64,000 bases of DNA from assembly GCA_050309605.1 (NCBI GenBank), contig JBNRMN010000092.1:17928-81927 (forward strand), read 5' to 3'. Of this stretch, positions 6,910 to 61,200 are shown in pieces. Under the pieces are notes generated by a model. That model was given only the letters and a program-made list of their open reading frames with translations, was not told the origin of the DNA and did no database searches. Both the position numbers and the translations under genes were made by a program. The number at the start of each line of letters is the position of its first letter. The first letter of the stretch is position 1. The DNA comes from Anaerohalosphaeraceae bacterium. GTDB taxonomy: Bacteria; Planctomycetota; Phycisphaerae; Sedimentisphaerales; Anaerohalosphaeraceae.

Positions 6910-7740
6910 ATGAACAATCAGGTTGCCAAGACGGATTATACCCCATCCCGTAAACCCATACCCGGTTTCACCCTCATTGAGCTTCTGGTCGTGATTGCCA
7001 TTATTGCCTTGTTGTTGTCCATTGTTACCCCTGCGTTGCGCAAGGCCAAAGAGCACGCCCAGCGCGTCATCTGCGGCAGCAACAGTCGTCAGACCGCTAT
7101 CGGGCTGATTACCTATGCCCAGAATAATGACGGCAGACTCATTGAGATCACCAATGATCAGGGCAATCCGAATAATCCGCTGGCCTGGCATAGTGTGATT
7201 GCATACAGTCCAAATAATATGATTTCCGGCACCTCCACTCCGCGTCCGATGCATCTGGCGGTGCTTTATGATCTCGGTCTAATCGGCGATCCGGGCATTT
7301 TTTATTGCCCCTCCCAGCCGCGAACGTCAGATTATCCCATCCCGTATTATTACGATTTCTATACCGATAACGGAACCAGACAGTGGGGGTCTTTCTTTCC
7401 GCAAATTCCAGGCATGTCAGGACATTTATTTGTGCGCACCTCCTACAATTACTGGACATACGATCAAACACGTCTGAATCGTATCGGCAGCCACAGGCCG
7501 TTTCTGGTCGATAATCTGCAGCACTGGAAAGTCATCCCCCATCGACGGGGCAATAATCTTTCCCATCCGCCTCTGGGCGTAACGGCGGTCTATCCCGACG
7601 GCCACGCTGCCTTTGTAACCGACAGCGGAAACTATGTTTTTGACCCGGACATCTGGCAGCCGGATGCCGCCTTTGATAATGGACCGGGAAACCGGCTGGA
7701 TGCTTATCTGACCATCCTGCAGCGGCTTCAGGGCAATTGA
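6910..7740 (+). CDS. Prepilin-type N-terminal cleavage/methylation domain protein (planctomycete DUF1559-like pseudopilin family)
   Basis: GFTLIELLVVIAIIALLLSIVTPAL..AK..AQRVICGSN; internal FYCPS; C-terminal H..GVTAVYPDGH (H-X9-DG-like). Confidence 0.9.
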   Translation: MNNQVAKTDYTPSRKPIPGFTLIELLVVIAIIALLLSIVTPALRKAKEHAQRVICGSNSRQTAIGLITYAQNNDGRLIEITNDQGNPNNPLAWHSVIAYSPNNMISGTSTPRPMHLAVLYDLGLIGDPGIFYCPSQPRTSDYPIPYYYDFYTDNGTRQWGSFFPQIPGMSGHLFVRTSYNYWTYDQTRLNRIGSHRPFLVDNLQHWKVIPHRRGNNLSHPPLGVTAVYPDGHAAFVTDSGNYVFDPDIWQPDAAFDNGPGNRLDAYLTILQRLQGN

Positions 7741-21419: not shown

Positions 21420-22052
21420 ATGACGGCGCGACAGCTTCAGGATTACCCGGCGATTGCGGTCCGGACGGAAACGCTGGACGGACGGCTTGATTTCAAGGTG
21501 CTTTTCGGACGTTCCGGGCCGGTCGAGATTGAGATCGGCTCCGGCAAAGGCACATTTCTGCTCAACCAGGCCCGCGCATTCGAAAAAACGTGTTTTTTGG
21601 GTATTGAATGGGCTAATAAGTATTATCGCTATGCGGTGGATCGCATCGGTCGCTGGGGACTGCAAAACGTGCGGCTGATTCGCACCGACGCGGCTGAGTT
21701 TCTGGCCGAGCATGTGCCCGACGAAAGCGTCGATGGATTTCACCTGTATTTTCCCGATCCCTGGCCCAAAAAACGTCATCACAAACGACGATTTTTTTAT
21801 ACGGACAACCTGGCTCAGATGGCCCGATGCCTGAAGCCCGACGGCTGGATCAATATCGCCACTGACCATCAGGATTATTTTGACCAGATGCAGCAGGTCG
21901 CCCGACAGGCCGTTGAGGCCGGGCAGGCTCGACTCATTCCGTTTAAGCGTCCGGTCGGCGCCGGCCAGGGCGAACAGGTCGGCACCAATTATGAACGCAA
22001 ATACAGGAAAGAAGGTCGGCCCACTTATACGCTGGCCCTGCAAAAGCAATGA
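21420..22052 (+). CDS. trmB: tRNA (guanosine(46)-N7)-methyltransferase
   Basis: EIGSGKG, FPDPWPKKRHHKRR, ATDH, TNYERK. Confidence 0.95.
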   Translation: MTARQLQDYPAIAVRTETLDGRLDFKVLFGRSGPVEIEIGSGKGTFLLNQARAFEKTCFLGIEWANKYYRYAVDRIGRWGLQNVRLIRTDAAEFLAEHVPDESVDGFHLYFPDPWPKKRHHKRRFFYTDNLAQMARCLKPDGWINIATDHQDYFDQMQQVARQAVEAGQARLIPFKRPVGAGQGEQVGTNYERKYRKEGRPTYTLALQKQ

Positions 22053-22789
22053 ATGCGCAACCGCTTGATTTGACGTTAGCCGCTGAATCGCTGGCGGCAC
22101 AGCCGCAGGCCTTTGAACGATTCGCTCAGATGCTCATAGAACACAATCGTTCGCTGAACCTGACGCGAATGGATCACCCGCAGGACATCCGCACACGGCA
22201 TTTTCTCGATTCGCTGGCGGCCTTGGCGATCGTAGATGAACCGGCCTCGAGACACCCGACCAATACGCCGTTTTCGGTGTTGGATGTTGGCTCGGGGGCG
22301 GGGTTTCCGGCGCTGGCTCTGGCAATTGCCCGCCCGAACTGGCGCGTCGTTTCGCTGGAGGCCACCGAAAAGAAGGTGCGTTTTCAGCGGCGGGTCTGTG
22401 AAGCGCTGGGTCTGGGCAATGTCGAGCTGCTGCACGGACGGGCCGAGATCTTGGCGCATGATCCGACGCGGCGAGAGCGGTTCGATGCGGTAACGGCCAG
22501 GGCGGTCGCTCCGCTGAACGTGCTGGCGGAGCTGACGCTGGCATTCATTCGACCGGGCGGATTGGTCCTGTTCTGGAAGGGACCGAACGTGCGGCAGGAA
22601 TACGACGCGGCCCGCCAAGCGATAAAAATGATGGGCGGTTCAGCTTTAACGCTGCATTCTTATGCGTTGCCGAACTTGCCGGAGACGGCGTTTTACCTGG
22701 TCGCGGCTGCCAAACACGCCGCCTCGCCGGTCAATCTGCCGCGCCGGCATTTTGGCATCATCAAAAAGCGTCCTCTGTCGCTGCTTTGA
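22049..22789 (+). CDS. rsmG: 16S rRNA (guanine(527)-N7)-methyltransferase
   Basis: NLTR, HFLDSL, LDVGSGAGFP, GRAE, VTARAVA, WKG. Confidence 0.95.
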   Translation: MNAQPLDLTLAAESLAAQPQAFERFAQMLIEHNRSLNLTRMDHPQDIRTRHFLDSLAALAIVDEPASRHPTNTPFSVLDVGSGAGFPALALAIARPNWRVVSLEATEKKVRFQRRVCEALGLGNVELLHGRAEILAHDPTRRERFDAVTARAVAPLNVLAELTLAFIRPGGLVLFWKGPNVRQEYDAARQAIKMMGGSALTLHSYALPNLPETAFYLVAAAKHAASPVNLPRRHFGIIKKRPLSLL

Positions 22790-22790
22790 C

Positions 22791-24773
22791 TTAAAAGTTG
22801 ATCGTTAACCCGCCATAGAAGGTTCTGCCGGGGCCGTCAGGAAAAGAATTCGGTACGCCGGCGTAAGCAAGCGTGGGCACGTAAGTTTTCTCGTTCAGCA
22901 GATTTTCCACCCTGAACACCAAACTGGCCCGGCCTTTGGGAATATCCAGCCATCGGGACGGGTCTACCTGGAAATTCATCGACAGCAGATTGAGCCTGTT
23001 GGGCTGCGGGTTGACGGTTACCGGCGATTCCACGCGGGGAGGCGTCCCATAGTGGCTGTAAAACAGCGCCGCCGAACCCCAATCCCATGTATATCCCGTT
23101 CCGAATTTGAACATATTGTTCGGCACGACGGTGTGGTCAAGTCCTTCGTCGATATTGCTGTGCTGGTGCATAAAGGAGCCGAGGATGTGCCAGTTCGGCG
23201 TAAAAAAGTGCTTGGCCTCAAACTCAACGCCTTCAAATCGCTGCCGGCCGCCGTTCATATACGTGGTCACCGGTCCGCTTGTATCAAACAGAATCTGATC
23301 GTCAATCGTACTGAAAAAATACGTCACGGCCGCATACGTCGTGCTATCGTGAAAAAACAGTTGTGCGTCGTAAGTGGTAATGGTTTCGGGTTTAAGACTG
23401 TTGTTGCCGACCTTCAGCGGCGGATCGTCCAGATCCGATTCCATGGCTATCGGCCCGCGAAAGGCCTCGCCGCGCAGCAATTTCACGCCCCATTTCTCAA
23501 ACGGCGTATAGATCACCCCGTACCGGGAGACCAGATCCGAATCGCCCAGCGGCGATTTATGCCATTGGGTGCCGGCAATAAGTTTCAGCGAATCGTCAAT
23601 TTCATAATCGCCCTGGGCATAGGCGCTGCGAGGGTCGTAGCTGTAGCTGCGGATGGATTGAAAATGACGATTTTTGGGTGAATAGCTTTTTCGATGCTCC
23701 TGTAAAAACCCGAATACGAGGTTCATCTCGTCCAGCGGATTGGCGAACAGCGTGATCTCTCCGAGAACATCCGATGTGTTGTTGGCAATCGGAATGGCTT
23801 CCGGGCTGGACAGCGTGTTTTCCTGAAGATTATACGTCAGATTCCACTCCAGCCTCAGCCGGTCATCCAATGGGGTTGAATACCCCAGATTGACAAACAG
23901 CCGTTTGTTGGTGATTTTCTGTCGGGGAACCGACCACGCCGGCCAAACACCGATATGAAACAGATCGATCTCACTGGCGAAGATGTCCAGCGTAAAATCT
24001 TTATACATCAAATGAACGGTTCCGGAATGACTTTTTTCATACCTGTTCCGCTTGCCGGGCATGCCGTCCGCATCGGTCATTTGATACGGCCAGCCGTCAT
24101 AGTCAAGGGTACGAAACGCCGCAACGTAACCCAGTTCGCCGGAGCGGCCGGCGGCGGATACGGTCGTATCGCAATAGCTGTAACTGCCGACCATTGATGA
24201 AATCGAAAACTCTTTTTCTTCCGGAACGTCGCGGGTATTCAGATTGATTACGCCTGTAAATGCGTTGGTCCCGTAAAGTACCGATCCGGGGCCGCGGATG
24301 ATTTCCACGCTGTCAAGGACGGACAGAGGGTACGTCAAATAAAGGGGGAAATTGTGCCCTTGGGCACTTTCACGAACAGGGCGACCGTTCAGCAAGATCA
24401 GGGTGTGCGTTTCCGAATGAGCCGTTAAATCGCCTCGAAAGCTGGCATGGTTATTCGCATAGGCAAACGAATTGTAGATATAAACACTTGGCTGGCGCTG
24501 CAGAAGCTGGAGTAAATTGCGGTCGCCGTACAGGTCAAATTCGCTGCGTGGAACGATGGCGACCACCCCGGGCGCCTTGAAATGCGGCTCTTCTTTTTTG
24601 GAAGCGACAAAAATATCCACTTCGAGCAGTTCTTCAAGCGACATATCAAAAAAACCCGTGTCCGTGTCGAATTGAGAGGAGTAGGCCGAAACATCCGCAA
24701 TCAGACAGCACAACACCGATACCCCAACCACACCCATCCAGTGCCATATCGATGACCATTTGAGGGACGACAT
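22791..24773 (-). CDS. TonB-dependent receptor
   Basis: Signal peptide; MSLEELL; plug motif VEIIRGPGSVLYGTNAFTGVIN; LKPETI; VENLLN; GRTFY..INF (terminal Phe). Confidence 0.92.
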   Translation of the reverse strand: MSSLKWSSIWHWMGVVGVSVLCCLIADVSAYSSQFDTDTGFFDMSLEELLEVDIFVASKKEEPHFKAPGVVAIVPRSEFDLYGDRNLLQLLQRQPSVYIYNSFAYANNHASFRGDLTAHSETHTLILLNGRPVRESAQGHNFPLYLTYPLSVLDSVEIIRGPGSVLYGTNAFTGVINLNTRDVPEEKEFSISSMVGSYSYCDTTVSAAGRSGELGYVAAFRTLDYDGWPYQMTDADGMPGKRNRYEKSHSGTVHLMYKDFTLDIFASEIDLFHIGVWPAWSVPRQKITNKRLFVNLGYSTPLDDRLRLEWNLTYNLQENTLSSPEAIPIANNTSDVLGEITLFANPLDEMNLVFGFLQEHRKSYSPKNRHFQSIRSYSYDPRSAYAQGDYEIDDSLKLIAGTQWHKSPLGDSDLVSRYGVIYTPFEKWGVKLLRGEAFRGPIAMESDLDDPPLKVGNNSLKPETITTYDAQLFFHDSTTYAAVTYFFSTIDDQILFDTSGPVTTYMNGGRQRFEGVEFEAKHFFTPNWHILGSFMHQHSNIDEGLDHTVVPNNMFKFGTGYTWDWGSAALFYSHYGTPPRVESPVTVNPQPNRLNLLSMNFQVDPSRWLDIPKGRASLVFRVENLLNEKTYVPTLAYAGVPNSFPDGPGRTFYGGLTINF

Positions 24774-24831
24774 TGTCTTTTCCTCATTCTAATTGACATA
24801 CTTTGTCTTTTTTAGCTCGGTCTCGGTATCG

Positions 24832-24858
24832 CTATCGGACAACAGAAGCGGTCACTTA
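24832..24858 (-). promoter_or_regulatory. Putative sigma28 (FliA-type) promoter of the TonB-dependent receptor
   Basis: Minus strand TAAG-N15-TCCGATAG versus consensus TAAA-N15-GCCGATAA. Confidence 0.45.
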
Positions 24859-24863
24859 ACTAC

Positions 24864-24918
24864 ACATTGGAAAAATGAAGCCGACCGGGGAAAGAGGATT
24901 TTTTGAGAGGGTCGGCCT
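24864..24918 (-). terminator. Intrinsic terminator after secretin pair
   Basis: Minus strand GCCGACC...GGTCGGC followed by TTCATTTTTCC. Confidence 0.55.
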
Positions 24919-24928
24919 TAACCCACGG

Positions 24929-26878
24929 CTACGGCGTGTCCGAGGGGCTGGATTGTTCAGTATCCGATTGTTCGGCCGGCGGAGCGGCTTCCTGCGGCTC
25001 GGCGGCTTGCTCCTGCTCGAGGGCTTGGGCTTCACGTTGCGCGTTTTCGGCTTGTTCCTGTGCTTGCTGAGCGGCCTGGCGGCTTTGCTCAAGCTGCTCA
25101 GCGGCTTGTTGGGCCTGCTGCGCGGCCTGTTGGGCGGCCCTGGCAGCTTGTTCGGCCTGCTGCTGCGCGTTTTGAGCCTCGGCCTCGGCAGCGTCTTTTT
25201 GCTGCTGCAACTCCATAATGCGTTGGCGTTCGGCTTCGGTCAGTTCGGCGGCCTGGCGGGCCTTTTCTATCGCCTGTTGAGCGTCCTGCGCGGCCTTGTC
25301 CGCTTCGCGCCTCAGTTGCTCGGCCTTTTGACGCAGTTTCTCGGCCTCGACGGCGATGCGATCGGCGCGCTGGCGTTCAGCCTGTGCTCGTCTCATCGCT
25401 TCTTCGCGAGCCAGCTCGGCCTCTTTTCGCTGCAATTCCGCATCAACGGCCTTTTGTTCTACCAGCGAGCTGTAAATGCTTGGTTCGAACGGCTCGGTCA
25501 GCATTTGACGAAGGCCCGTCTTGTAATCCGATTCCGCATATTTATCGCGGATCTCCTGAACAACACGACCGTGATCTTCACCTCCGGCTGAGATACTCGG
25601 CGTCAGGATATAAATAATTTCAGTGGCCTTTTCTTCAAAATCTTTGCTGGAAAACAACACCCCCAGCAAGGGCAAATCCTTAAAGAACGGTATGCCGCGA
25701 ATCACAGACCGCTTTTCCATTTTGCGCATCCCGCCGATAATCAGGCTCTCGCCGGGCAGAATGCGGTTTTCGGCCACGTTGATCGAGCGTTCGGTAATGA
25801 TGGCCCGCTGCACGACGCCTTCGGGTTTCGACCGCGAACCGATTTTGATATCGGTTACCAATCCGATAGACCCGTCGGCATAGACATGCGGCGTAACCGA
25901 AAGCGTGTTTTCCACCCAGACATACTCCGTGATGTTATACACGCTTGAGGCGCCGCCGAGGCCGGTTTTGACGACCTCGATGGGCGCATGATCCTTGATG
26001 GTCACCGCCGCCGGCTGGGCATTGACCGTTTCGAGGGTCGGATTCAACAGCACCTTCAGGTAGCCTTTTGAAATCAACACGTCCACCACGGCCCGAAACT
26101 GGTGACCGGGAACCCCCCTGTTGCGCCAGTAGCCGAAGTCCAGCCCGAACTTGCCCCGCTCCGGCTCGCGAAGCGACGCGCCCGGAAACGCCGGGTCCAG
26201 ACCAACCAATACTCTTTCGTTAATCTCAATTTTATCAAAATCGATCCCAGCATAATTTGATACATTGACGTTTCCTGGCAATAGATTGTCTCTTCCGTCA
26301 ACAAATCGATAACTGTTGTCTCCAATTTTTTTGATGAATGTACCTCTGTCTTCACCAAGGGTGATGCCTTCCCCGAGGAGATTTTGAATCATCACGGAGG
26401 TTTCCCAGTCCATCGTAATATCGCCGAACCGCTCGAGAATCAGACAGTCGATATTGACCTGCACCGGCGGCACATCAATCAGCCGCAAATAATCTTCAAC
26501 CGCCGTAGCCTGAGCGTCGTCTGCGCAGTACAAGACCAATTGATTGATCGCGGCGTTGACCGAGGCATCGACGCCGAGCTGCTCTTTGACCAGCCCGGCC
26601 AGATTGCCCGCCGGATGGTGCTTGGTAAAGTAAAACAGTTTGGTGCCCTCGCGGATCTGCAGTCGTGCCGGCGGCTGCCGATAGACTTCGGGCAGGGGAT
26701 TGTGAATATGGGGGCTTTCCCGAACTTGCCCCAGCTCTTCAAGTATCTCACGCGCCTGAACCTCGGTCGGTTTCTGTGCAAAGAAATCGCCGCAGCCGCT
26801 CAGCAGCAACACCGCCCCCGCGCCGATAATGGCCGGTGCAATAACTGCAACACGTTTTCTCAGGTCATACCACGTCAT
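24929..26878 (-). CDS. Secretin-family (GspD/PilQ-like) lipoprotein with C-terminal coiled coil
   Basis: LLSGC lipobox; IDVPPVQVNIDCLILE; KVLLNPTL; GESLIIGG; GIPFFKDLPLLGVLF; EIIYILTP; A/E/Q/R-rich tail. Confidence 0.85.
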   Translation of the reverse strand: MTWYDLRKRVAVIAPAIIGAGAVLLLSGCGDFFAQKPTEVQAREILEELGQVRESPHIHNPLPEVYRQPPARLQIREGTKLFYFTKHHPAGNLAGLVKEQLGVDASVNAAINQLVLYCADDAQATAVEDYLRLIDVPPVQVNIDCLILERFGDITMDWETSVMIQNLLGEGITLGEDRGTFIKKIGDNSYRFVDGRDNLLPGNVNVSNYAGIDFDKIEINERVLVGLDPAFPGASLREPERGKFGLDFGYWRNRGVPGHQFRAVVDVLISKGYLKVLLNPTLETVNAQPAAVTIKDHAPIEVVKTGLGGASSVYNITEYVWVENTLSVTPHVYADGSIGLVTDIKIGSRSKPEGVVQRAIITERSINVAENRILPGESLIIGGMRKMEKRSVIRGIPFFKDLPLLGVLFSSKDFEEKATEIIYILTPSISAGGEDHGRVVQEIRDKYAESDYKTGLRQMLTEPFEPSIYSSLVEQKAVDAELQRKEAELAREEAMRRAQAERQRADRIAVEAEKLRQKAEQLRREADKAAQDAQQAIEKARQAAELTEAERQRIMELQQQKDAAEAEAQNAQQQAEQAARAAQQAAQQAQQAAEQLEQSRQAAQQAQEQAENAQREAQALEQEQAAEPQEAAPPAEQSDTEQSSPSDTP

Positions 26879-26882
26879 AGCG

Positions 26883-28604
26883 TTACTCTTGCTCCGTTGG
26901 CGGCGGCTGCGTTTGCTGTTGTAAGGATTCGATTTCAGCCTGTATGGCTTCCTGACGAGCCTTCAGTTTTTCTGTTTCCTGTCGGGCCGCTTCGGCTTTC
27001 TGCCGGGCCTGTTGCAATTCGGCCTCGGCCTGCTGGGCGGCCGCTTTGGCCGCTTCGGCCGCGGCGGCGGCGCTTTGGATCTCTTCTTCAGCTTGCGAAA
27101 TCAGCGCCTGCTGCACCTGCGTTTCTTTGGCGGCGGCCTGGGCCTGGGCCTGGGCCGCCTTGTTTTGGGCAACGGCCTGCTCGTATTCACGGCGAGCCTG
27201 TTCGATCTGAGCCTCCAGAAGCTGCATCTCGACCAGCATCTGTTCGGCGCGCAGGCGATCCTGCTCGGCCTCAAAGTCAGCCCGTTGAGCCTCCCGCTCA
27301 AACCGAATCGTCTCGGCGCGCGCCTCGTCGGCCTTGTCCTCCAGATACTGGGCATAGACATCGCCGGCCAGCGGATCGGCAACCAACTCGTCCAGAATGG
27401 CGTCATAATCCGGCGTCCGGTGTTTCTCGCGAATCATATCGGCCATTTCCGAATAATGGACGCTGCCCGAAGAAATGCTCGGCGTCAGGATAAACACAAT
27501 TTCGGTGGCGTTTTCTTCAAAGTCCTTGCTCGCAAAGAACGTCCCGATCAGCGGCAGATCCTTGAAGAACGGCACCCCGCGGATGACCGAGCGGTTTTCG
27601 CTTTTGCGCATCCCGCCGATAATCAGGCTGTGCCCCGGACGGATGCGGTTCTCGGCCACGTCAATCGAGCGCTGCGTGATGATCGACGTTTGAACCACGC
27701 CTTCGGGTTTGGAGGCCGAGCCGATGTTGATCGAGGTTTTCAGTCCGATCGAGCCGTCAGCATAGACATGCGGCGTTACGGTCAGGGTATCGGTGACCCA
27801 TTCATATTTCGTCAGGGTATAAGGTTCTTTGTCTTTTTCCGTTACGCGAATGGGAACCGGCTGACGGTCGCGAATCTGCACGGTCGCCGCCTTGCCGGTT
27901 ACGGTTTCCAGCGTCGGATTGAGCAGGATTTTCAAATACCCGCGGGATTCAAGAATGTCAATAATCGCGCGCACCTGATGTCCGGGAATCCCTTCATTCC
28001 GCCAGAATCCGAAGTCCATCCCAAACGTGCTGCGCTTGCTTTCCCGAAGCGATGCACCGGGCAAAGCGGGTTCGGGGAATTTACTCTCGCCAAGAGTGAT
28101 TCGTTCGCCAAAAAGGTTTTCGATTAAGATCGATGTTTCCCAGTCTTTGGTCACATCGGCAAATCGTTCCAGAATGATGCAGTCGATGTGCACCTGGATC
28201 GGCGGCACATCCGTGCGTACCAGATAGGCTTCGATCACGTCGCATTCGGCTTCATCCGAGGCGTGGATAATGACCTGATTGGTGCTCGGATTCTGGCTGA
28301 CCTTATAGCCCAGTCGTTTCAGGTCGTTGGCGATCTGCTGGGCCGGGTGGTGTCGGGTAAAATAGAACATCCGCACCCCGTCTTCCATCACCAACCGTCG
28401 CGGCGGCGTGCGGTACATTTCCGGAAGCGGATTATAAATATGGGGATTTTCGCGAACGCGCGCGATGTCGCGAATGATCATTTTGGATTCAATTTCGGTC
28501 GGTTTTTTTCCGAAAAATTCTTCGATACTGCCGGTCTGGGCGCAGCCGGAAAACACCGCAGACGCGGCAATCGGGACGATCCAGCGCATACAGCGACGTC
28601 GCAT
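26883..28604 (-). CDS. Secretin-family lipoprotein with C-terminal coiled coil (tandem paralog)
   Basis: VFSGC lipobox; TDVPPIQVHIDCIILE; GHSLIIGG; GVPFFKDLPLIGTFF; EIVFILTP; coiled-coil tail. Start uncertain (28604 or 28589). Confidence 0.85.
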   Translation of the reverse strand: MRRRCMRWIVPIAASAVFSGCAQTGSIEEFFGKKPTEIESKMIIRDIARVRENPHIYNPLPEMYRTPPRRLVMEDGVRMFYFTRHHPAQQIANDLKRLGYKVSQNPSTNQVIIHASDEAECDVIEAYLVRTDVPPIQVHIDCIILERFADVTKDWETSILIENLFGERITLGESKFPEPALPGASLRESKRSTFGMDFGFWRNEGIPGHQVRAIIDILESRGYLKILLNPTLETVTGKAATVQIRDRQPVPIRVTEKDKEPYTLTKYEWVTDTLTVTPHVYADGSIGLKTSINIGSASKPEGVVQTSIITQRSIDVAENRIRPGHSLIIGGMRKSENRSVIRGVPFFKDLPLIGTFFASKDFEENATEIVFILTPSISSGSVHYSEMADMIREKHRTPDYDAILDELVADPLAGDVYAQYLEDKADEARAETIRFEREAQRADFEAEQDRLRAEQMLVEMQLLEAQIEQARREYEQAVAQNKAAQAQAQAAAKETQVQQALISQAEEEIQSAAAAAEAAKAAAQQAEAELQQARQKAEAARQETEKLKARQEAIQAEIESLQQQTQPPPTEQE

Positions 28605-28690
28605 CACTCTTTTCAGATGATTTGTGTTCAAGAGAAAACGCATCCAACACCCATACAAAAGGCCGGCTTATTTGTCATAACTTACAGTCC

Positions 28691-28717
28691 TTATCGGCAC
28701 GGAAGGCGTTTTTTCTA
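28691..28717 (-). promoter_or_regulatory. Putative sigma28 (FliA-type) promoter of secretin pair
   Basis: Minus strand TAGA-N15-GCCGATAA (perfect -10, one mismatch in -35). Confidence 0.55.
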
Positions 28718-28937
28718 TAGTGAAAACACGTACTTCGGACAAATCCATTGGGATCGAACGCCTCTGAACGACAGCACTTGATTCGCGCAATAAGAACGCC
28801 TTAATCGTTGCGTTTATTTCCTTGTTTTCTAAAGATGATTGTTTTTTTGGCTTTGTGTGGAACCTACTGGCATTGACGGGATGTTTTTGTTAAGATTTTG
28901 CCGATTCGCAACTCAATTTAAGGACAACATACACGAC

Positions 28938-30317
28938 ATGGCAAGAAAGGACAAGCAAAACCCGGCGGTAACCGTCGGATTGGTGGCACTTGGCTGCCCC
29001 AAAAACATCGTTGACAGCGAGGTTATGCTGGCTCGACTGGGACAAGCCGGTTTTGTGCTCAGCGGCGAGGCCGATTGTGCGGATGTGGTGGTGATTAACA
29101 CCTGCGGCTTCATCGCCCCGGCCAAAGACGAGGCCATCGAGGTGATTCGACAGGCTGTTCGTCAAAAAAAGAGAGGGAAGATCAAAAAGATTATTGTGGC
29201 CGGCTGTCTGTCCGAACGGATGGGCGAGGCGCTGAGACAGGAAGTCAAAGGGATTGATGTTATTGTTGGCCTTGAACAGCGAGATCAAATTGAACGGATT
29301 GTGGCCGCCTCTTTGGGGCAGTGCCAGCCAACACCCCAAGCCGTTCGGCCGCGGTCGAGCACGTCGAAAAACGACGATATCAGTGTTATGGCGGCCCACG
29401 ACGACCGCGGACGTCTGCTGATCAGCCCGAACCATTGGGCGTATTTACGCATCAGCGAGGGATGCGATCGAAAATGTTCGTTTTGTACGATTCCCGCTAT
29501 CCGCGGCCGATTTCGGAGCAAGCCGTTGGAACTCGTCGCCAAGGAAGCACAGGAACTAGTCGAAAACGGGGCGGTCGAACTGAGTTTGATCGCACAGGAC
29601 AGCAATTATTACGGGCGCGACCTGAAAATGAAAAACGGCCTGGTTCAGCTTATTGCTGAGCTGGAAAAACTCGAATCGCTCCGCTGGATTCGACTGATGT
29701 ATCTGTATCCGTCCGGGATCGATGAAGCCCTGCTGGAAGCGATGGCGCAGAGCCAAAAAGTCGTTCATTACGCGGATATTCCGATGCAGCACATCAACAA
29801 TCGAATTCTCAAGTCGATGCGCCGAGCGGATACAAAGGAAAACAATCTCCGTCTGATTGAACGGCTGCGAATGCTGATGCCCGATGTGGTTCTGCGAACG
29901 ACGATCATCGTCGGCTATCCGGGCGAAACAGAAGCGGAATTCGAAGAACTGCTGGAGTTTGTCCGCCGGGCAAAGTTTGATGCGCTGGGTTGTTTTCCGT
30001 TTTACGCCGAGTCGGGCACACCCGCGGTCGAGCTGCCCGATCAGGTGCCTCAGGACATCAAGCTGCAACGCGTGGACCGATTGATGCGAACCCAACAGGA
30101 GATGCTGTTTGCCAAAATGAACGCGCGAATCGGAGACGAATTGACGGTGCTGGTCGATGAAACGGGGCCTGATGGGGCAATCGGGCGTTACTACGGCCAG
30201 GCTGCGCACATCGACAGCGTCTGCCTGATCAGGGCCTGCGACGATCCGCCGGGCACATTCATCAAAACCCGCATCACCGGACGCGATGGATACGATTTTA
30301 CAGTGGAAAAAATATGA
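28938..30317 (+). CDS. rimO: Ribosomal protein S12 methylthiotransferase
   Basis: LGCPKNIVDSE, INTCGFI, AGCL, AYLRISEGCDRKCSFCTIP, C-terminal TRAM domain. Confidence 0.96.
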   Translation: MARKDKQNPAVTVGLVALGCPKNIVDSEVMLARLGQAGFVLSGEADCADVVVINTCGFIAPAKDEAIEVIRQAVRQKKRGKIKKIIVAGCLSERMGEALRQEVKGIDVIVGLEQRDQIERIVAASLGQCQPTPQAVRPRSSTSKNDDISVMAAHDDRGRLLISPNHWAYLRISEGCDRKCSFCTIPAIRGRFRSKPLELVAKEAQELVENGAVELSLIAQDSNYYGRDLKMKNGLVQLIAELEKLESLRWIRLMYLYPSGIDEALLEAMAQSQKVVHYADIPMQHINNRILKSMRRADTKENNLRLIERLRMLMPDVVLRTTIIVGYPGETEAEFEELLEFVRRAKFDALGCFPFYAESGTPAVELPDQVPQDIKLQRVDRLMRTQQEMLFAKMNARIGDELTVLVDETGPDGAIGRYYGQAAHIDSVCLIRACDDPPGTFIKTRITGRDGYDFTVEKI

Positions 30318-30326
30318 CCCATACCA

Positions 30327-30930
30327 GCGCGGCACAATAGCGCGGCCGCGCAAGCGGCCCGATAAGCGATGCGAATACGCCAAACGCTTTTCGAGGCGGA
30401 GTGTATTATCCGGCGGCTCGCGCCGCTCGGCTGGTGTACGACGACGCAATGGCGCGGCGCAACAGCGCGGCCGCGCAAGCGGCCCGATAAGCGATGCGGA
30501 TACGCCAAACGCTTTTCGAGGCGGAGTATTATCCGGCGGCTCGCGCCGCTTGGCTATTGTACGATGACGCAATGGCGCGGCGCAACAGCGCGGCCGCGCG
30601 AGCGGCCCGATAAGCGATGCGAATACGCCAAACGCTTTTCGAGGCGGAGTATTATCCGGCGGCTCGCGCCGCTCGGCTGGTGTACGACGACGCAATGGCG
30701 CGGCACAATAGCGCGGCCGCGCAAGCGGCCCGATGAGCGATGCGGATACGCCAAACGCTTTTCGAGGCGGAGTATTATCCGGCGGCTCGCGCCGCTCGGC
30801 TGTTGTACGATGACGCACTGGCGCAGCACAATAGCGCGGCCGCGCGAGCGGCCCGATAAGCGATGCGGATACGCCAAACGCTTTTCGAGGCGAAGTATTA
30901 TCCGGCTCACTCGCGCGGTTCGGCTATTGT
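30327..30930. repeat. Tandem array of five ~123-bp REP-pair (REPIN/BIME-like) units
   Basis: GAT(A/G)AG anchor at 30361, 30486, 30609, 30732, 30855 (period 123; first 125). Each unit holds AATAGCGCGGCCGCGCAAGCGGCCCGATA and an inverted relative TATCCGGCGGCTCGCGCCGCTCGGCT. Confidence 0.95.
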
Positions 30931-30936
30931 GAATCA

Positions 30937-31593
30937 ATGACAGCAGGATTTATGATGGATACAAATACAATGGTCAATAAACCTGAAAAAGGAATCATTC
31001 GGCATATTCCCAATGCCCTGACAGTCGGCAGACTGATTTTGACGCTGATCTTTTTGGGGATGATTCTGTATGCGCCGAAACTGGAGCAGGACAAACCCGC
31101 CGCCTATTTAATGGGAGCGTTCGTCTTGTTTGTGGTGGCCGGTCTGACGGATATTGTCGATGGCCATCTGGCACGAAAATATGAGGTAACCAGCCGGTTC
31201 GGTCGAACGGTGGATCCGCTGGCCGACAAGATTCTGGTCTGCGGGACGTTTTTTTGTTTTGCGATGGTCGCCCAGCCGCGTCTGGCCGGTTTCGGCTTTT
31301 CCGATACGACGCTTCATGTGATTCGCTGGGGGACGGCGGTCATTCTTTTTGCGCGGGAGGTGGCGGTGCAGACGCTGCGGCACATCGCCGAGTCGCACGG
31401 CGTCAACTTCGGTGCTGTGGTCTATGGCAAAATCAAGATGTTCCTGCAATCGTTCGGCATCGGCACGGTGCTGATCGGCTGGGCGTTTGTCTCGCGTCCG
31501 TGGGGCGATTGGTTTACGTTGGTCACGTATTTTTTGATGGTCGTCGCGACTGTGTTGTCCGGGATCCATGCACTCCGACGCGTCCGACACTGA
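30937..31593 (+). CDS. pgsA: CDP-alcohol phosphatidyltransferase (PGP synthase-like)
   Basis: IPNALTVGR, TDIVDGHLARK..VTSRFGRTVDPLADK, GKIKM; follows rimO as is common. Confidence 0.85.
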   Translation: MTAGFMMDTNTMVNKPEKGIIRHIPNALTVGRLILTLIFLGMILYAPKLEQDKPAAYLMGAFVLFVVAGLTDIVDGHLARKYEVTSRFGRTVDPLADKILVCGTFFCFAMVAQPRLAGFGFSDTTLHVIRWGTAVILFAREVAVQTLRHIAESHGVNFGAVVYGKIKMFLQSFGIGTVLIGWAFVSRPWGDWFTLVTYFLMVVATVLSGIHALRRVRH

Positions 31594-31684
31594 TGGTTAT
31601 GCGGCACGGATTGGCCGGTTTCTTTGAACCGTCATCACAAATCCGAATAACCGTGTCGCCTGCAAACGGTTGGAATGCAGAAAC

Positions 31685-31719
31685 AAAAAAGGCCGGCTCT
31701 CAGTGAACCGGCCTTTTTT
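31685..31719. terminator. Bidirectional intrinsic terminator
   Basis: AAAAAAGGCCGG-ctctcagtgaa-CCGGCCTTTTTT. Confidence 0.85.
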
Positions 31720-31749
31720 CTGTTAAGGCACTCAATGAAGTGTTTAGAC

Positions 31750-32547
31750 TTAGAAGCCCAAACTGTAGGTCAATCCGCAGAACAGATAATCCTTTTTGTT
31801 GTCATTCAGGGTGCGAGTGAACATGTTCTGGAAATACACCGCAGGCGTCAGCGTGCCGCCGGTCAGGGGGCACTGCATATCCGCTTTCAGACCCCAGAGC
31901 ATATGCGTCCAGCCATTGATGACGCTCTTATCCACGACGCCGTCGTTATAGACAATATCCCAGGAGAAGGTCATCGGAACATCGGGCACTTCATTCAGCG
32001 TAAAGTTATAGTCCGCACCGACTTGAACGATGCTGCCGCTGGCAAAGCTCAGAGGTGTGCCATCGGGAGCGGTGCTTCTGCCGCTGCGGGCCTGCCACAG
32101 ATAGTAGTAGTTCACGTGAGGAACCAGGCCGGCGCCGACGAGATTCGGCATATCCATCTCCAGGAAGACTTCCTGATAGTCCACACCCTTGGACGGCATA
32201 TCGATCAAATCATAGTACCGCCATCCGAGTGTGTAGTCGGTTTTCAGGCAATCGCCTTCGAGAACGCTGCCGCCATAGTACAGCGTGTACTGATATTCCG
32301 TGGCGTTGACGGTGCCGGCATTGTGACCGTAAGCTGCCAGCAGGTTGGCGCCGAAACCGCCGCCCAGGTCAAAATCCACACTGGGCTTCCACACCGGCGA
32401 GCTGCCCATTTTGTTGTAGCCCCGCCAGATGTACCGGCTCATGTATTCGACGTCCACCGTGACGCCGACATCCGTGCCGAACACATCTACGGCGCTTGCT
32501 GCGGGAACCAATCCACACAGTACCACCATTGCTAACATTTTCTTCAT
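31750..32547 (-). CDS. Putative outer-membrane beta-barrel protein (TorF/Gcw_chp-like porin)
   Basis: Signal peptide; early SRYIWRG motif; aromatic alternating strands; C-terminal GLTYSLGF beta-signal. Confidence 0.7.
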   Translation of the reverse strand: MKKMLAMVVLCGLVPAASAVDVFGTDVGVTVDVEYMSRYIWRGYNKMGSSPVWKPSVDFDLGGGFGANLLAAYGHNAGTVNATEYQYTLYYGGSVLEGDCLKTDYTLGWRYYDLIDMPSKGVDYQEVFLEMDMPNLVGAGLVPHVNYYYLWQARSGRSTAPDGTPLSFASGSIVQVGADYNFTLNEVPDVPMTFSWDIVYNDGVVDKSVINGWTHMLWGLKADMQCPLTGGTLTPAVYFQNMFTRTLNDNKKDYLFCGLTYSLGF

Positions 32548-57887: not shown

Positions 57888-58263
57888 TGCGTCAGTTTAT
57901 TTTCTCAGTCTTTTATGTCGCTTTTTCTGTCTGGTTTAGCCACATAGTATAGTACACTGTCGCCATTTTGCAACTTTTTTCAAACCCTACTGTCGCCCGC
58001 CCGCGGCACCCTTAAAATCCGACTCAATTTGGCCGATTTTTCTTGCATTACAGGCCTGAATCGGCTATGATAACGTTCTACGGAGATCGGGCAACTAATC
58101 GTTCTCTCGGGGTAAATAAGCACAAAATTTATTTTTTCTGCAAGAAAACTTCGTCATTTTCAGCCCAGAGAGTCATTGCATAATAAAATGGCATGGACAA
58201 CGCCGAAAAATGGGGTCAGGATCTGATAAACGGTACGCTTTTCCATTAAATCAGAGGACAGTG

Positions 58264-61200
58264 ATGGTTGGTACAGGTTTTTGGCGGTGCAATCTCTTCT
58301 TTTTGGTTTTGTGCGGTGTTTCCCTTTCGGCGGCTGTTCCGGTTGCAGATGGCTTACTGTTTCATGCAGCCGCCGACGGTCTGTCCGGCTACGACCAGGC
58401 AGACCCTGTTTCGATGTGGCCGGATTTATCGGGCAATGACAACCATGCGTTTCAAACTGATTCCGGACATCGTCCCGTTTATATATCCAATGTCTTGAAC
58501 GGCAAGCCGGTTCTTCGGTTCGACGGCATCAACGACTATTTTTCATTGCCGGAATTGCCTGAGGTGGGCACCGTTTTTTTTGTCCTGTGCGAAGACCCCA
58601 ATGCGACGCCTAATTGGCGCCCTTTCATCTCCCATGCGCTGCCTGGCAACGAGCCGGCCAATTGGCACCGCGGCGAGAATCGAACATTTTGGTCGCAGCA
58701 ATGGGGCCAGCCCGTTGTCTATGCAGGTCAAACAAAAGTCAACGGCGTGATCGTGGACGGCTTGACGACGCCGATACCCACGTCGCATGCTCTGGTCTCC
58801 CAGATCAATCTTGCGCCGGTGCCGGCGAATCTGATCGGCCGCGACCGAAGTTTTTCAGATCGTGTCTGGCATGGCGATATCGCCGAGATTCTGCTGTATA
58901 ACCGCGCGCTCAACGAACAGGAAGAAAATGCTGTGGGCTGGTATTTGGCCCAAAAATACAATCTTGCCTCGGCGTATGCCTATCCGGGACTTCGGCCTGT
59001 CTATCCCCCCTTGCAGGCATTGGGAGTTCCGCGCACTGACGTGCAATTATCGTGGTGGACTGTGCCGCAAGCGGATTCTTATCGGCTTTATTTCGGCCGC
59101 TCGCTGCCGCTGCCGGTCGCCGCCGTGGTGTCGGAACCGGTCATGGCATGGGCGACTGCGCTAGAGCCGCAAACCACCTATTTCTGGCAGGTGGAAGCAC
59201 TCCGCGACGGCGACGTTGTCGAAACCGGTGACATCTGGTCGTTTCGTACCGCCGGCCCCTGGCAGGATTGCCCGCCGGCCGATCTGACGGGCGATTGCGC
59301 GGTTGGACTGGATGATTTGCTAGTATTGGCCTCAGAGTGGCTGGAGCCGGAGCCGACGCCGGCGGTGAATTTGGACGGACGCGACGGCGTCGATATGCGG
59401 GATTTTGCGATCATGGCAGATTATTGGGGACAGCGCATCGACGGCGCGATCATCAGCGAATTTATGGCGCGAAACAGGGCCGTCGTCCCGCTTCGTCCGC
59501 AGGATGTGCTCGATGAGGACGGCGACGCGTCCGACTGGATTGAGCTGCACAATACCACCAATCGTCCCATGTCTCTGAAAAATTGGTATTTAACAGACGA
59601 CCAGGACGACCTGACCCAATGGCAATTTCCGGATGTCACCCTGCCGGCGGGAGGGTATCTGGTTGTCTTTGCGTCCGGCAAAGACCGCACCGACCTGGAT
59701 GCACCGCTGCATACCAATTTTTCACTGGCTGCGGCGGGTGAATACCTTGCCCTGGTCTATCCTGACGGCCAAACGATTGCCCATACATACGGCGTTTATC
59801 CTGTCCAGTTTGCCAACATTTCTTACGGGATCAGCGAGGCCGGAACCGCCGCCATTCAAACCACGACCCTGCTGGCCGAAGGCGCACCGGCCAAAGCGTT
59901 CATTCCTTCCGACAGTGCCCTTGGCGACAGTTGGCGTTATTATGATTATGATGACCAAAACTGGCTGACCGGCTCGGTCGGCGTCGGCTATGAAGCCAAT
60001 CCCAACGATCCGATCCATTATGCCGATCTAATCGGTCTGGATGTCTCCGCGATGAGAGGCGCCAACACGACGGTGTATATTCGAATCCCATTCGAGGTGG
60101 ACGAACCTCAAAAAGTGTCCCAGCTGCATTTGCTGATGCGTTATGATGACGGGTTTATCGCCTGGCTTAACGGCGTCGAAATCGCCCGTGCCAACGCCCC
60201 GGAGACGCCCGCATGGAACAGTCGCGCCACGCGACAGCATCTTGATGAGGATGCGGTGATTCCGGAAGTTTTTGATTGTACGCTGGCCATTGAACACCTT
60301 CGCCGGGGAACCAATCTATTGGCGATTCAGGGACTGAACAGCTCACTGAACAGCTCAGACTTGCTGATCTTGCCCGAAATGGAATCTTTTGTGATGATTC
60401 CGCCGCCGGAGGAGAGGCTGGAAGGCTATTTTTCCGTTCCGACGCCGGGTCGACCCAATTACGCCGCGGATCTGGCCATTGGTCCGGCGATTACGCCGCT
60501 GGAGGAAAACCCGCCGCGTCCTGAGCCGGGTGAACACCTCATTCTTACCGCAGAGATCGCGCAGCATATTGATCCGGTGGCTGACGTTACTCTGCACGGT
60601 CGTCGGATGTTCCATCCGGAAGTGCAGTTTCCGATGCGGGATGACGGCGTCTGGCCGGATGAAACCGCCGGCGACGGTATTTATACCGTCCAGATTCCCA
60701 CCGACACTGTCAATCCGGGCGAAATGGTGCGCTGGTACTTTACCGCCGAGGATACCGCCGGCCGGCTGACGCGCGACCCGTTGTTTCCGCATCCGACCGA
60801 TTCGCCGCAGTATTACGGAACGGTGATCAGGGATCCGGAGGTGGACAGTCAAATGCCGGTCTTTGAATGGTTCGTTGAAAACGTCGGCGCCTCTGAAACC
60901 CGCGGCGGGACGCGCGCATCGGTTTATTACAACGGGCGCTTTTATGACAATGTCTTTATACGCATTCGCGGCGGCAGTACGGCCGGTATGCCCAAAAAAC
61001 ATTTCAAGTTTGATTTCAATCGCGGGTTTAATTTTATTTACGATGACAACAACCCTGCCGTCAGAGAAATCAACATCAACAGCACGTACAGCGACAAGGC
61101 CTATATTCGCCAGCCGCTGGCCTTTGAGGTGTATAATCTGTGCGGCAATCCGGCGAGCATGTCGTTTCCGGTACACAGTCGGCGCAACGGAGCGTTTTTC

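Follow-up and report, generated by a model that had tools for sequence, protein, structure and literature searches.

We analysed a window of 64,000 nucleotides (nt) of contig JBNRMN010000092.1, from the assembly of an Anaerohalosphaeraceae bacterium, in which two adjacent genes for lipoprotein secretins lie on the minus strand (all positions are those of the window). The first gene of the pair, SecB (26883..28604), encodes a protein of 573 amino acids (aa) and is supported by PF00263 and an AlphaFold2 (AF2) model; the second, SecA (24929..26878), encodes 649 aa and is supported by its open reading frame (ORF), PF00263, an AF2 model and Foldseek. The mechanical ORF of SecB extends over 26883-28658 (minus strand), its longest version beginning at a TTG at 28658. 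Most plausibly the ATG at 28604 is the start of SecB, which yields an ordinary 21-residue lipoprotein signal, MRRRCMRWIVPIAASAVFSGC. The stop of SecB and the start of SecA are separated by a 4-nt spacer (26879..26882, minus strand; TAA-CGCT-ATG), and the two proteins are 48% identical across 515 residues (E 5e-175), so the initial description of two adjacent paralogs 4 nt apart holds. SecA carries an insertion of about 45 extra residues (residues ~178-225; 26204..26347, minus strand), seen as a gap in the alignment with SecB. This insertion is also missing in many SecA orthologs, in which the core ends at 391 as against 428; it fits a variable loop and is possibly exposed on the surface. In one public DNA run a further 12-nt in-frame insertion is found at 26227 (SecA residue ~217), within the same segment. 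Near-identical DNA to 24929-28658 occurs in at least 20 public runs from 11 studies, with metagenomes of poultry litter, sludge, digesters, soil and gut among them, and one of these runs may be the source sample. The single run marked as possible RNA is probably DNA; its contigs are thin and scattered.

Architecture of SecA and SecB

Both proteins contain the secretin core. PF00263 Secretin is the sole Pfam family in either of them, at 87.5 bits for SecA and 97.0 bits for SecB against a cut-off of 27.5, and the core motifs quoted in the initial annotation (GESLIIGG/GHSLIIGG, G[IV]PFFKDLPL and EI[IV][YF]ILTP) are all present in both, with many core residues invariant in both family alignments. 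AF2 models were built from these alignments, SecA from A1 (42 rows) with a mean predicted local distance difference test (pLDDT) of 65.9 and SecB from A2 (32 rows) with a mean of 64.1. The SecA model has a signal helix at residues 2-27, and its secretin beta-domain, delimited by Pfam, AF2, a profile search of PDB sequences and Foldseek, spans residues 140-429 (25592..26461, minus strand). The corresponding elements of the SecB model are a signal helix (2-20), a post-lipobox helix (35-49), the beta-domain (137-377) and a post-core helix (384-394). When the SecA model was compared with the PDB by Foldseek, all 40 matches at E <= 0.001 were secretins (best E 3.4e-12, probability 1.00), among them GspD, InvG, PilQ, BfpB, pIV and RcpA; the template modelling (TM) scores are low because a monomer model bearing a long tail served as the query. 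The profile search of PDB sequences placed pIV of the filamentous phage f1 first (6.1e-11), followed by PilQ and GspD, and also found RcpA. Behind the core of SecA lies a conserved segment (residues 430-467; 25478..25591, minus strand) with an S-domain-like short helix at 436-447 and two nearly invariant residues, R444 and P463.

Assignment to a defined secretin subfamily fails in each direction. The NCBIfam model of GspD (TIGR02517) gives 67.6 bits for SecA and 89.0 for SecB against a cut-off of 351.35, and that of PilQ (TIGR02515) 64.1 and 68.1 against 284.35, in both cases matching the core only; SctC (52.7 and 64.3 against 238) and MshL likewise stay far below. Apart from these scores, neither protein has the N0-N3 set of GspD and there are no gsp genes nearby, while the pilMNO cluster that would point to PilQ sits on a different contig and itself lacks a secretin. 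The pair does not co-occur with a cpaF-tadBC machine, as would be expected of a Tad RcpA/CpaC secretin: TadB is found in 5/15 genomes of family f1 and 0/3 of family f3, compared with 14/15 and 3/3 for the pair. Judged by sequence, SecA and SecB are members of the secretin superfamily that belong to none of its defined subfamilies.

The two ends of the proteins set them apart. At the N-terminus each has a signal peptide with a lipobox, L-S-G-C29 in SecA (26792..26878, minus strand) and F-S-G-C21 in SecB (28542..28604, minus strand), whose cysteine is invariant in 42/42 rows of A1 and in 32/32 rows of A2; a simple lipobox pattern is present in 102 of the 120 homologs examined. In these predicted signals (LSGC29 and FSGC21) both proteins agree with liposecretins of the HxcQ type. 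An anchor-proximal conserved segment follows in SecA (residues 30-70; 26669..26791, minus strand), with a modelled helix at 37-53, an NPLPE.YR.PP motif and invariant F32, P63 and Y66. Each of the two proteins has conserved stretches of ~40 residues next to the anchor and behind the core, and the N-terminal motif around F32, P63 and Y66 is invariant in A1 as well as in A2. Next comes a beta-alpha-beta-beta-alpha domain (residues 71-134; 26477..26668, minus strand), which has its counterpart at residues 69-131 of SecB; AF2 gives both units a pLDDT of 84-90. The label 'N3-like' for this domain is a statement about the modelled fold and not a family assignment, because the Pfam family Secretin_N matches neither SecA nor SecB even at E <= 10; in the PDB profile search the N3 domains of pIV and PilQ gave non-significant alignments only. 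No N0, N1, N2 or AMIN domain is detectable in either protein with Pfam, and Pfam searches with the isolated tails and N-terminal fragments returned noise only (E >= 0.03). The lipoboxes and the minimal N-terminal region noted at the outset are thus borne out, and the single N3-like domain stands as a predicted fold without a match to its profile.

At the C-terminus, a predicted helical tail of ~150 residues, rich in A/E/Q, takes the place of the short S domain (residues 468-625 of SecA, 25004..25477; residues 414-563 of SecB, 26916..27365; both minus strand). Its pLDDT is ~80 in both AF2 models. A tail follows the core in 120/122 proteins compared; of the other two, one (P0003) is the neighbouring TonB-dependent receptor and one (P0022) a truncated fragment. 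Past the ..ILTP motif it measures 132-426 residues (median 202), of which a median 64% are A/E/Q/R/K; sequence conservation is confined to the first ~60 residues past the core (A1). Presence and composition of the tail are conserved, its length is not. The two tails in the window are acidic, with net charges of -17 and -20. Their 3.5-residue periodicity exceeds the 95th percentile of shuffled sequences (0.89 against 0.33 in SecA, 0.60 against 0.43 in SecB) and opposite-charge i/i+4 pairs are enriched in the SecA tail only, a pattern that favours a coiled coil over a pure single alpha-helix. The initial annotation had recognised the long tail as a replacement of the S domain and had named disorder together with lack of conservation as a ground for refutation; the tails are instead predicted to be helical and heptad-periodic, and they are kept across the family. 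Among 62 secretin representatives outside the family, a tail of this composition of at least 100 aa occurs in four, three of which are family fragments, so by sequence the long helical tail is essentially specific to the family of the pair.

How far could such tails reach? In the SecA model two helices (468-542 and 548-625, of 75 and 78 residues) fold back into an antiparallel hairpin which, at 0.15 nm per residue, would make a rod of ~11 nm. The SecB tail is modelled as one continuous helix of 150 residues, which would extend ~22 nm, with confidence falling along the helix. Of the 20-25 nm proposed initially for a tail that would span the periplasm, the SecB model thus retains the figure and the SecA model halves it. 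The SecA tail model (467-632) superposes on known antiparallel hairpins, namely SteB (9hmx, Z 13.5), YscO (4mh6, Z 13.1) and the receptor-binding domains of colicins E3/E9 (Z 11.6-12.3); this likeness is one of geometry only, as such Z values are common for long helices.

Distribution, synteny and ancestry of the pair

A word-indexed protein search, in which 7999 candidates were scored, returned 901 proteins at E <= 0.001, and the best 120 of the 901 all carry PF00263; where source names are given, they read 'hypothetical', GspD or CpaC. An exhaustive search with residues 30-440 yielded 67 representative clusters at E <= 1e-30, after which the scores fall sharply to those of generic secretins. 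The family is accordingly sharply delimited and comprises ~67 clusters at 50% identity. Matches in the ESM Atlas are Planctomycetota secretin clusters only. When 151 genomes of the class were sampled, with a match at E <= 1e-30 taken as positive, 18 contained the pair: the genome of the window itself, 14/15 in family f1 and 3/3 in family f3, as against 0/2 in family f2 and 0/130 across 18 other families. All 18 carry the two copies next to each other, and they belong to a single order of Phycisphaerae and to two families. The 33 related contigs are labelled Phycisphaerae, Sedimentisphaerales or Anaerohalosphaeraceae, except for seven that are named 'uncultured Pirellulales'. Some members of the family belong to genomes assembled as one contig, and one (L012) to the record of a named isolate.

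The tandem arrangement itself is a conserved trait. The pair is found in 22 of 33 related loci, always in the same order; ten others have a single copy and one has a fragment. The gap between the paired genes never exceeds 20 nt, and in 7 of the 22 pairs the called ORFs overlap by 4 nt. The neighbours in the window are genes for a TonB-dependent receptor, rsmG, trmB, miaB, pgsA and a Mur ligase. miaB lies divergently upstream in 24/33 loci, usually with pgsA behind it, and the intergenic region between SecB and miaB (28605..28838) is the presumed promoter region, although a promoter scan found consensus-level matches there at chance level only. Downstream of SecA, a weak candidate terminator (24871..24918, minus strand; 9-bp stem, 23-nt loop, U-rich tail; -15.6 kcal/mol, z -1.86) can be folded; the terminator scan performed at chance level and did not report this long-loop hairpin. 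Rfam gave no match over window positions 22000-32000.

Two candidates for a functional partner at the locus were discarded. The TonB-dependent receptor (22791-24773, minus strand; Plug and beta-barrel) adjoins the pair in none of the related loci, the only receptor match lying ~7.5 kb downstream in L023. Because rsmG directly follows SecA in the closest relative (L028), the receptor is, on this comparison, a local insertion between SecA and rsmG that stands outside the secretin unit. A conserved downstream operon partner was likewise sought, and no same-strand gene is kept across the related loci. Only in L030, L037 and L038 is the single-copy secretin followed by a small ORF (124-147 aa) on its own strand, and no such ORF was found after pairs. 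In L033 (9745-11489), SecA is split into two ORFs of 235 and 342 aa, by a frameshift or stop in that metagenome-assembled genome or by an assembly error.

We inferred a maximum-likelihood tree from 52 core sequences, leaving out those that had no core-end motif or a core of at most 300 residues. All first genes of the pairs fall into one clade (100/96) and all second genes into a second one (100/98). These are sister clades (100/100) with subtrees that mirror each other, which indicates that the pair goes back to one old duplication and has since been co-inherited. Nine single-copy sequences lie outside the pair clades. Loss, too, seems to have been joint. G127, a genome of the same family that is 99% complete, lacks both genes, its best match being a generic secretin at 3.7e-12. 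On contig C123 of this genome (L056 970-4743), miaB abuts a 221-aa gene that follows SecA in eight other loci, and the next two genes match as well. By this synteny G127 represents a clean joint deletion of both secretin genes, read from a draft genome of 200 contigs.

This history bears on the idea that the genes are the remnant of a pIV-like secretin from a filamentous phage or another mobile element. pIV is the best sequence match among solved structures and has a short N-terminal region, and both points speak for such an origin. The chromosomal position beside miaB is nevertheless fixed in 24/33 loci, the tree mirrors genome relationships, there are no phage genes within 20 kb, N0, which pIV has, was undetected by Pfam, and the base composition of the region is unremarkable; we consider a phage remnant highly improbable.

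Other features of the window lie outside the secretin unit. Between miaB and pgsA there is a tandem array (30327-30930) of a 123-nt unit in 4.9 copies with 93% matches. At least five contigs of the genome carry pieces of this unit, in many cases arranged in tandem there too (123 blastn rows), and in three runs the read depth over the array is ~20 times that of its flanks; the array matches neither a tRNA nor an Rfam family. The mechanical ORF 30369-30932 is probably not a gene, because the array covers it. At the far end of the window, an ORF of more than 1930 aa (58210-63999, plus strand) runs off the window end; the Lamin Tail Domain is matched in it three times, and it also has a CotH kinase domain.

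Possible partner machines and proposed mode of action

What could the pair serve? The initial annotation found no machinery gene of a type II secretion system (T2SS), type IV pilus, Tad pilus or type III secretion system adjacent to it, and indeed the neighbouring genes are unrelated. The only pilin-like ORF in the window (6910-7740, plus strand; 276 aa, with a prepilin-type N-terminal methylation motif) is 17 kb away, among sugar-metabolism genes. Elsewhere, the genome of the window (3.4 Mb, 97 contigs) contains 7 secretin, 13 T2SSE and 18 T2SSF matches, and four of the secretins share contigs with GspE/GspF genes. Three filament clusters stand without a nearby secretin: a type IVa pilus (T4aP)-like cluster on contig C63 (pilM-pilN-pilO, a gene for 218 aa, pilB-pilT-pilC and pilins), a T2SS-like cluster on C21 (gspE-pilT-gspE-gspF followed by six pseudopilin-like genes) and a Tad-like cluster on C82 (cpaF-tadB-tadC). 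Because these three clusters exist, the pair might be their unlinked cognate secretin. The T4aP-like arrangement is not peculiar to this genome: a pilM homolog is present in 5/5 other genomes examined, and pilMNO-x-pilB has no secretin in 4/5 of them.

We tentatively propose, at a confidence that falls somewhat short of even, that SecA and SecB are lipid-anchored, self-piloting secretins whose paralogous subunits act together, whose tails replace the role of N0-N2, AMIN and pilotin, and which form the outlet for a filament-type machine whose genes lie elsewhere. The predicted N-terminal lipid would send the proteins to the outer membrane by the Lol route without a pilotin, by analogy with HxcQ. 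There the subunits would assemble as a multimeric ring, giving one or more gated outer-membrane channels, and cooperation of the two paralogs is probable, whether they share one mixed ring or form two rings that work together. The tails in the periplasm, which measure 11 to 22 nm in the models, may form a coiled-coil crown around a short vestibule. Such a crown would take over the spacing and anchoring that are provided elsewhere by N0-N2 or AMIN domains, pilotins or GspB-like scaffolds. Most likely, a machine of the type IV filament kind would use the channel as its way out through the outer membrane; the candidate partners are the T4aP-like cluster (pilMNO-pilBTC) and the T2SS-like cluster found across the class, neither of which has a linked secretin.

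Several observations weigh against a partnership of this kind. No filament-machine gene adjoins the pair in any of the 33 related loci, and the N0 domain that would dock onto the homology region of GspC or PilP is absent by Pfam, which gives PF00263 only. None of the three clusters follows the distribution of the pair. GspF of the C21 type occurs in 146 of the 151 class genomes, the Tad-like TadB is patchy (5/15 in family f1 and 0/3 in family f3), and a secretin-less pilMNO-x-pilB is found also in families f2 and f14, which have no pair. Since the T4aP-like cluster is without a secretin in families with and without the pair, no replacement of an earlier secretin by the pair can be read from its state. 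G127, which lost both genes, retains orthologs of all three clusters (PilM 62%, GspF 76% and TadB 54% identity). An uncharacterised protein of the T2SS-like cluster, of 362 aa, comes close to the pair in distribution (14/15 in family f1, 1/3 in f3, 0/2 in f2, 1/130 in the others), but the match was rejected: the protein diverges too fast for its distribution to be informative, and it departs from the pair in G127, G078, G106 and G113. Another secretin, moreover, could serve the class-wide clusters instead. This orphan gene (G000:C59:20493-21665; L044 10491-11666; 391 aa) is cut by a contig end in the genome of the window, and its orthologous frames, mostly of 1000-1300 aa and present in 72/151 class genomes, suggest a giant protein; that length and the contig-end cut also removed it as a candidate for a small Tad-type secretin. 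Taken together, the distribution data reduce the likelihood of the reading, raised in the initial annotation as a possible refutation, that these are simply the unlinked secretins of an ordinary T2SS or type IV pilus. The description 'stand-alone' can be kept only with reserve: the genome has three clusters in want of a linked secretin, although none shares the phyletic pattern of the pair.

These observations are also what one would expect if the pair worked with no type IV filament machine at all. It would then be an autonomous conduit or envelope tether, either a gated pore that lets polymers or other cargo pass or mainly a lipid-anchored spacer between outer membrane and wall, with coiled coils reaching the peptidoglycan or inner membrane. 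The lack of linkage in 33 loci, the missing N0 docking domain, the mismatch with all three orphan clusters, the retention of those clusters in G127 and the tail that is essentially specific to the family all argue in its favour. On the other side, no characterised secretin is known to work without a partner in the inner membrane, there is no known way in which a gated 12-15-mer pore could open without an energised partner, and secretin-less filament clusters do exist in the genome. There is also no linked cargo gene, the TonB-dependent receptor downstream being not conserved in relatives. An autonomous pore would have a parallel of sorts in slime export, to which secretins have been linked, besides protein and pilus export (PMC12475490). 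Overall we regard an autonomous conduit or tether as unlikely, though as the main rival of the filament-exit model.

The other uncertainty in the filament-exit model concerns the relation of the two subunits. Fixed tandem order, stop/start coupling, co-divergence and co-loss favour a mixed ring, as does a weak pass of a complex model of the two tails. That model scored 0.52 (best of three controls 0.00), with contacts agreeing to at least 81% and a partner pLDDT of at least 79. The pass mark is reached by 116/157 solved complexes and 2/215 mismatches, and passes scoring no higher than 0.60 comprise only 18/157 solved complexes together with both mismatches. The controls were unrelated proteins and not other coiled coils, so that the result says little on specificity, and this weakens the case for joint action of the paralogs. 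So do two further points. The lengths of the SecA and SecB tails show no co-variation over 17 loci (Pearson 0.39, p 0.12; Spearman 0.05), five pairs in which a contig end truncates SecA being left aside, and the monomer models differ in tail geometry, hairpin against single helix, although such models are not decisive. The initial suggestion of a hetero-oligomer thus has circumstantial backing in the inheritance and coupling of the genes and weak backing in the tail model, and is left unsupported by tail length. Given that the proteins form rings at all, a mixed ring seems to us possible but on balance doubtful.

If the ring is not mixed, the pair could be two separate homo-oligomeric secretins, each serving one of the two widespread clusters, T4aP-like and T2SS-like. 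The numbers agree, two paralogs for two orphan clusters; tail lengths evolve independently, the tail models differ, SecA has an insertion and SecB has none, and the solved secretin rings among the Foldseek and PDB profile matches are all homo-oligomers. Against this division of labour stand the constant adjacency, fixed order and stop/start coupling of the genes, their joint loss in G127 with both clusters retained, and the existence of single-copy relatives in genomes outside the pair clade. We judge it rather unlikely. The boldest version of the mixed ring, in which SecB and SecA build one obligate hetero-oligomeric, self-piloting ring with a coiled-coil cage that spans the periplasm in place of the N0-N2 rings and is not docked to a type IV filament machine in the usual way, appears to us improbable; if true, it would be the first mixed-subunit secretin.

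Relation to known secretins and significance

Known systems share single traits with the pair. HxcQ sits within a T2SS operon, keeps N0-N3, has no long C-terminal coiled coil and is a single gene rather than one of a conserved pair. Its likeness lies in the lipoprotein signal and the lack of a separate pilotin, according to 2009 work cited in PMC12475490. Secretins of type IVb pili of the BfpB/TcpC type are lipidated and have the same core fold (BfpB-BfpG, 9u5s, Foldseek E 7e-9; see also PMC12531336). They are encoded in pilus operons, have a partner such as BfpG and lack the coiled-coil tail, and the pair is related to them at the superfamily level only. The periplasmic part of phage f1 pIV (7ofh) is reduced compared with GspD, as is that of the pair. 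pIV has N0 and N3, is not a lipoprotein, has no tail and is phage-encoded. With GspD, PilQ, SctC and RcpA the pair has the secretin core and gate region in common and differs in the absence of N0-N2, AMIN and BON domains, of operon linkage and of NCBIfam scores anywhere near the cut-offs. Lipobox, single N3-like domain, long coiled-coil tail and conserved pairing of paralogs were not found described in combination in the full-text literature searched, subscription journals being outside its coverage, which accords with the initial view of an undescribed architecture; in PMC11131199 the word 'secretin' occurs in the reference list only.

What are the implications of such an architecture? Type II and type III secretion, type IV pili, Tad pili and filamentous phages all use a secretin as their gate in the outer membrane. 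The prevailing picture of secretin targeting and anchoring, and of the coupling to the inner membrane, is built on N0-N3 or AMIN domains, the short S domain and pilotins. As far as can be judged from its sequences, the family described here keeps the gate and changes both ends, with a predicted lipid anchor and a single N3-like domain in front and a predicted coiled coil of 130-300 residues behind, and its members occur as a pair that has been stably inherited together. Even if the pair were merely the unlinked gate of a secretin-less filament cluster, it would still show that docking through N0 is dispensable. If the tails do act as a periplasmic spacer or anchor, or if the ring is mixed, the pair would add a new mode of building a secretin and of coupling it, and it would offer a handle on the poorly known envelope of the anaerobic Phycisphaerae, some of which are in culture.

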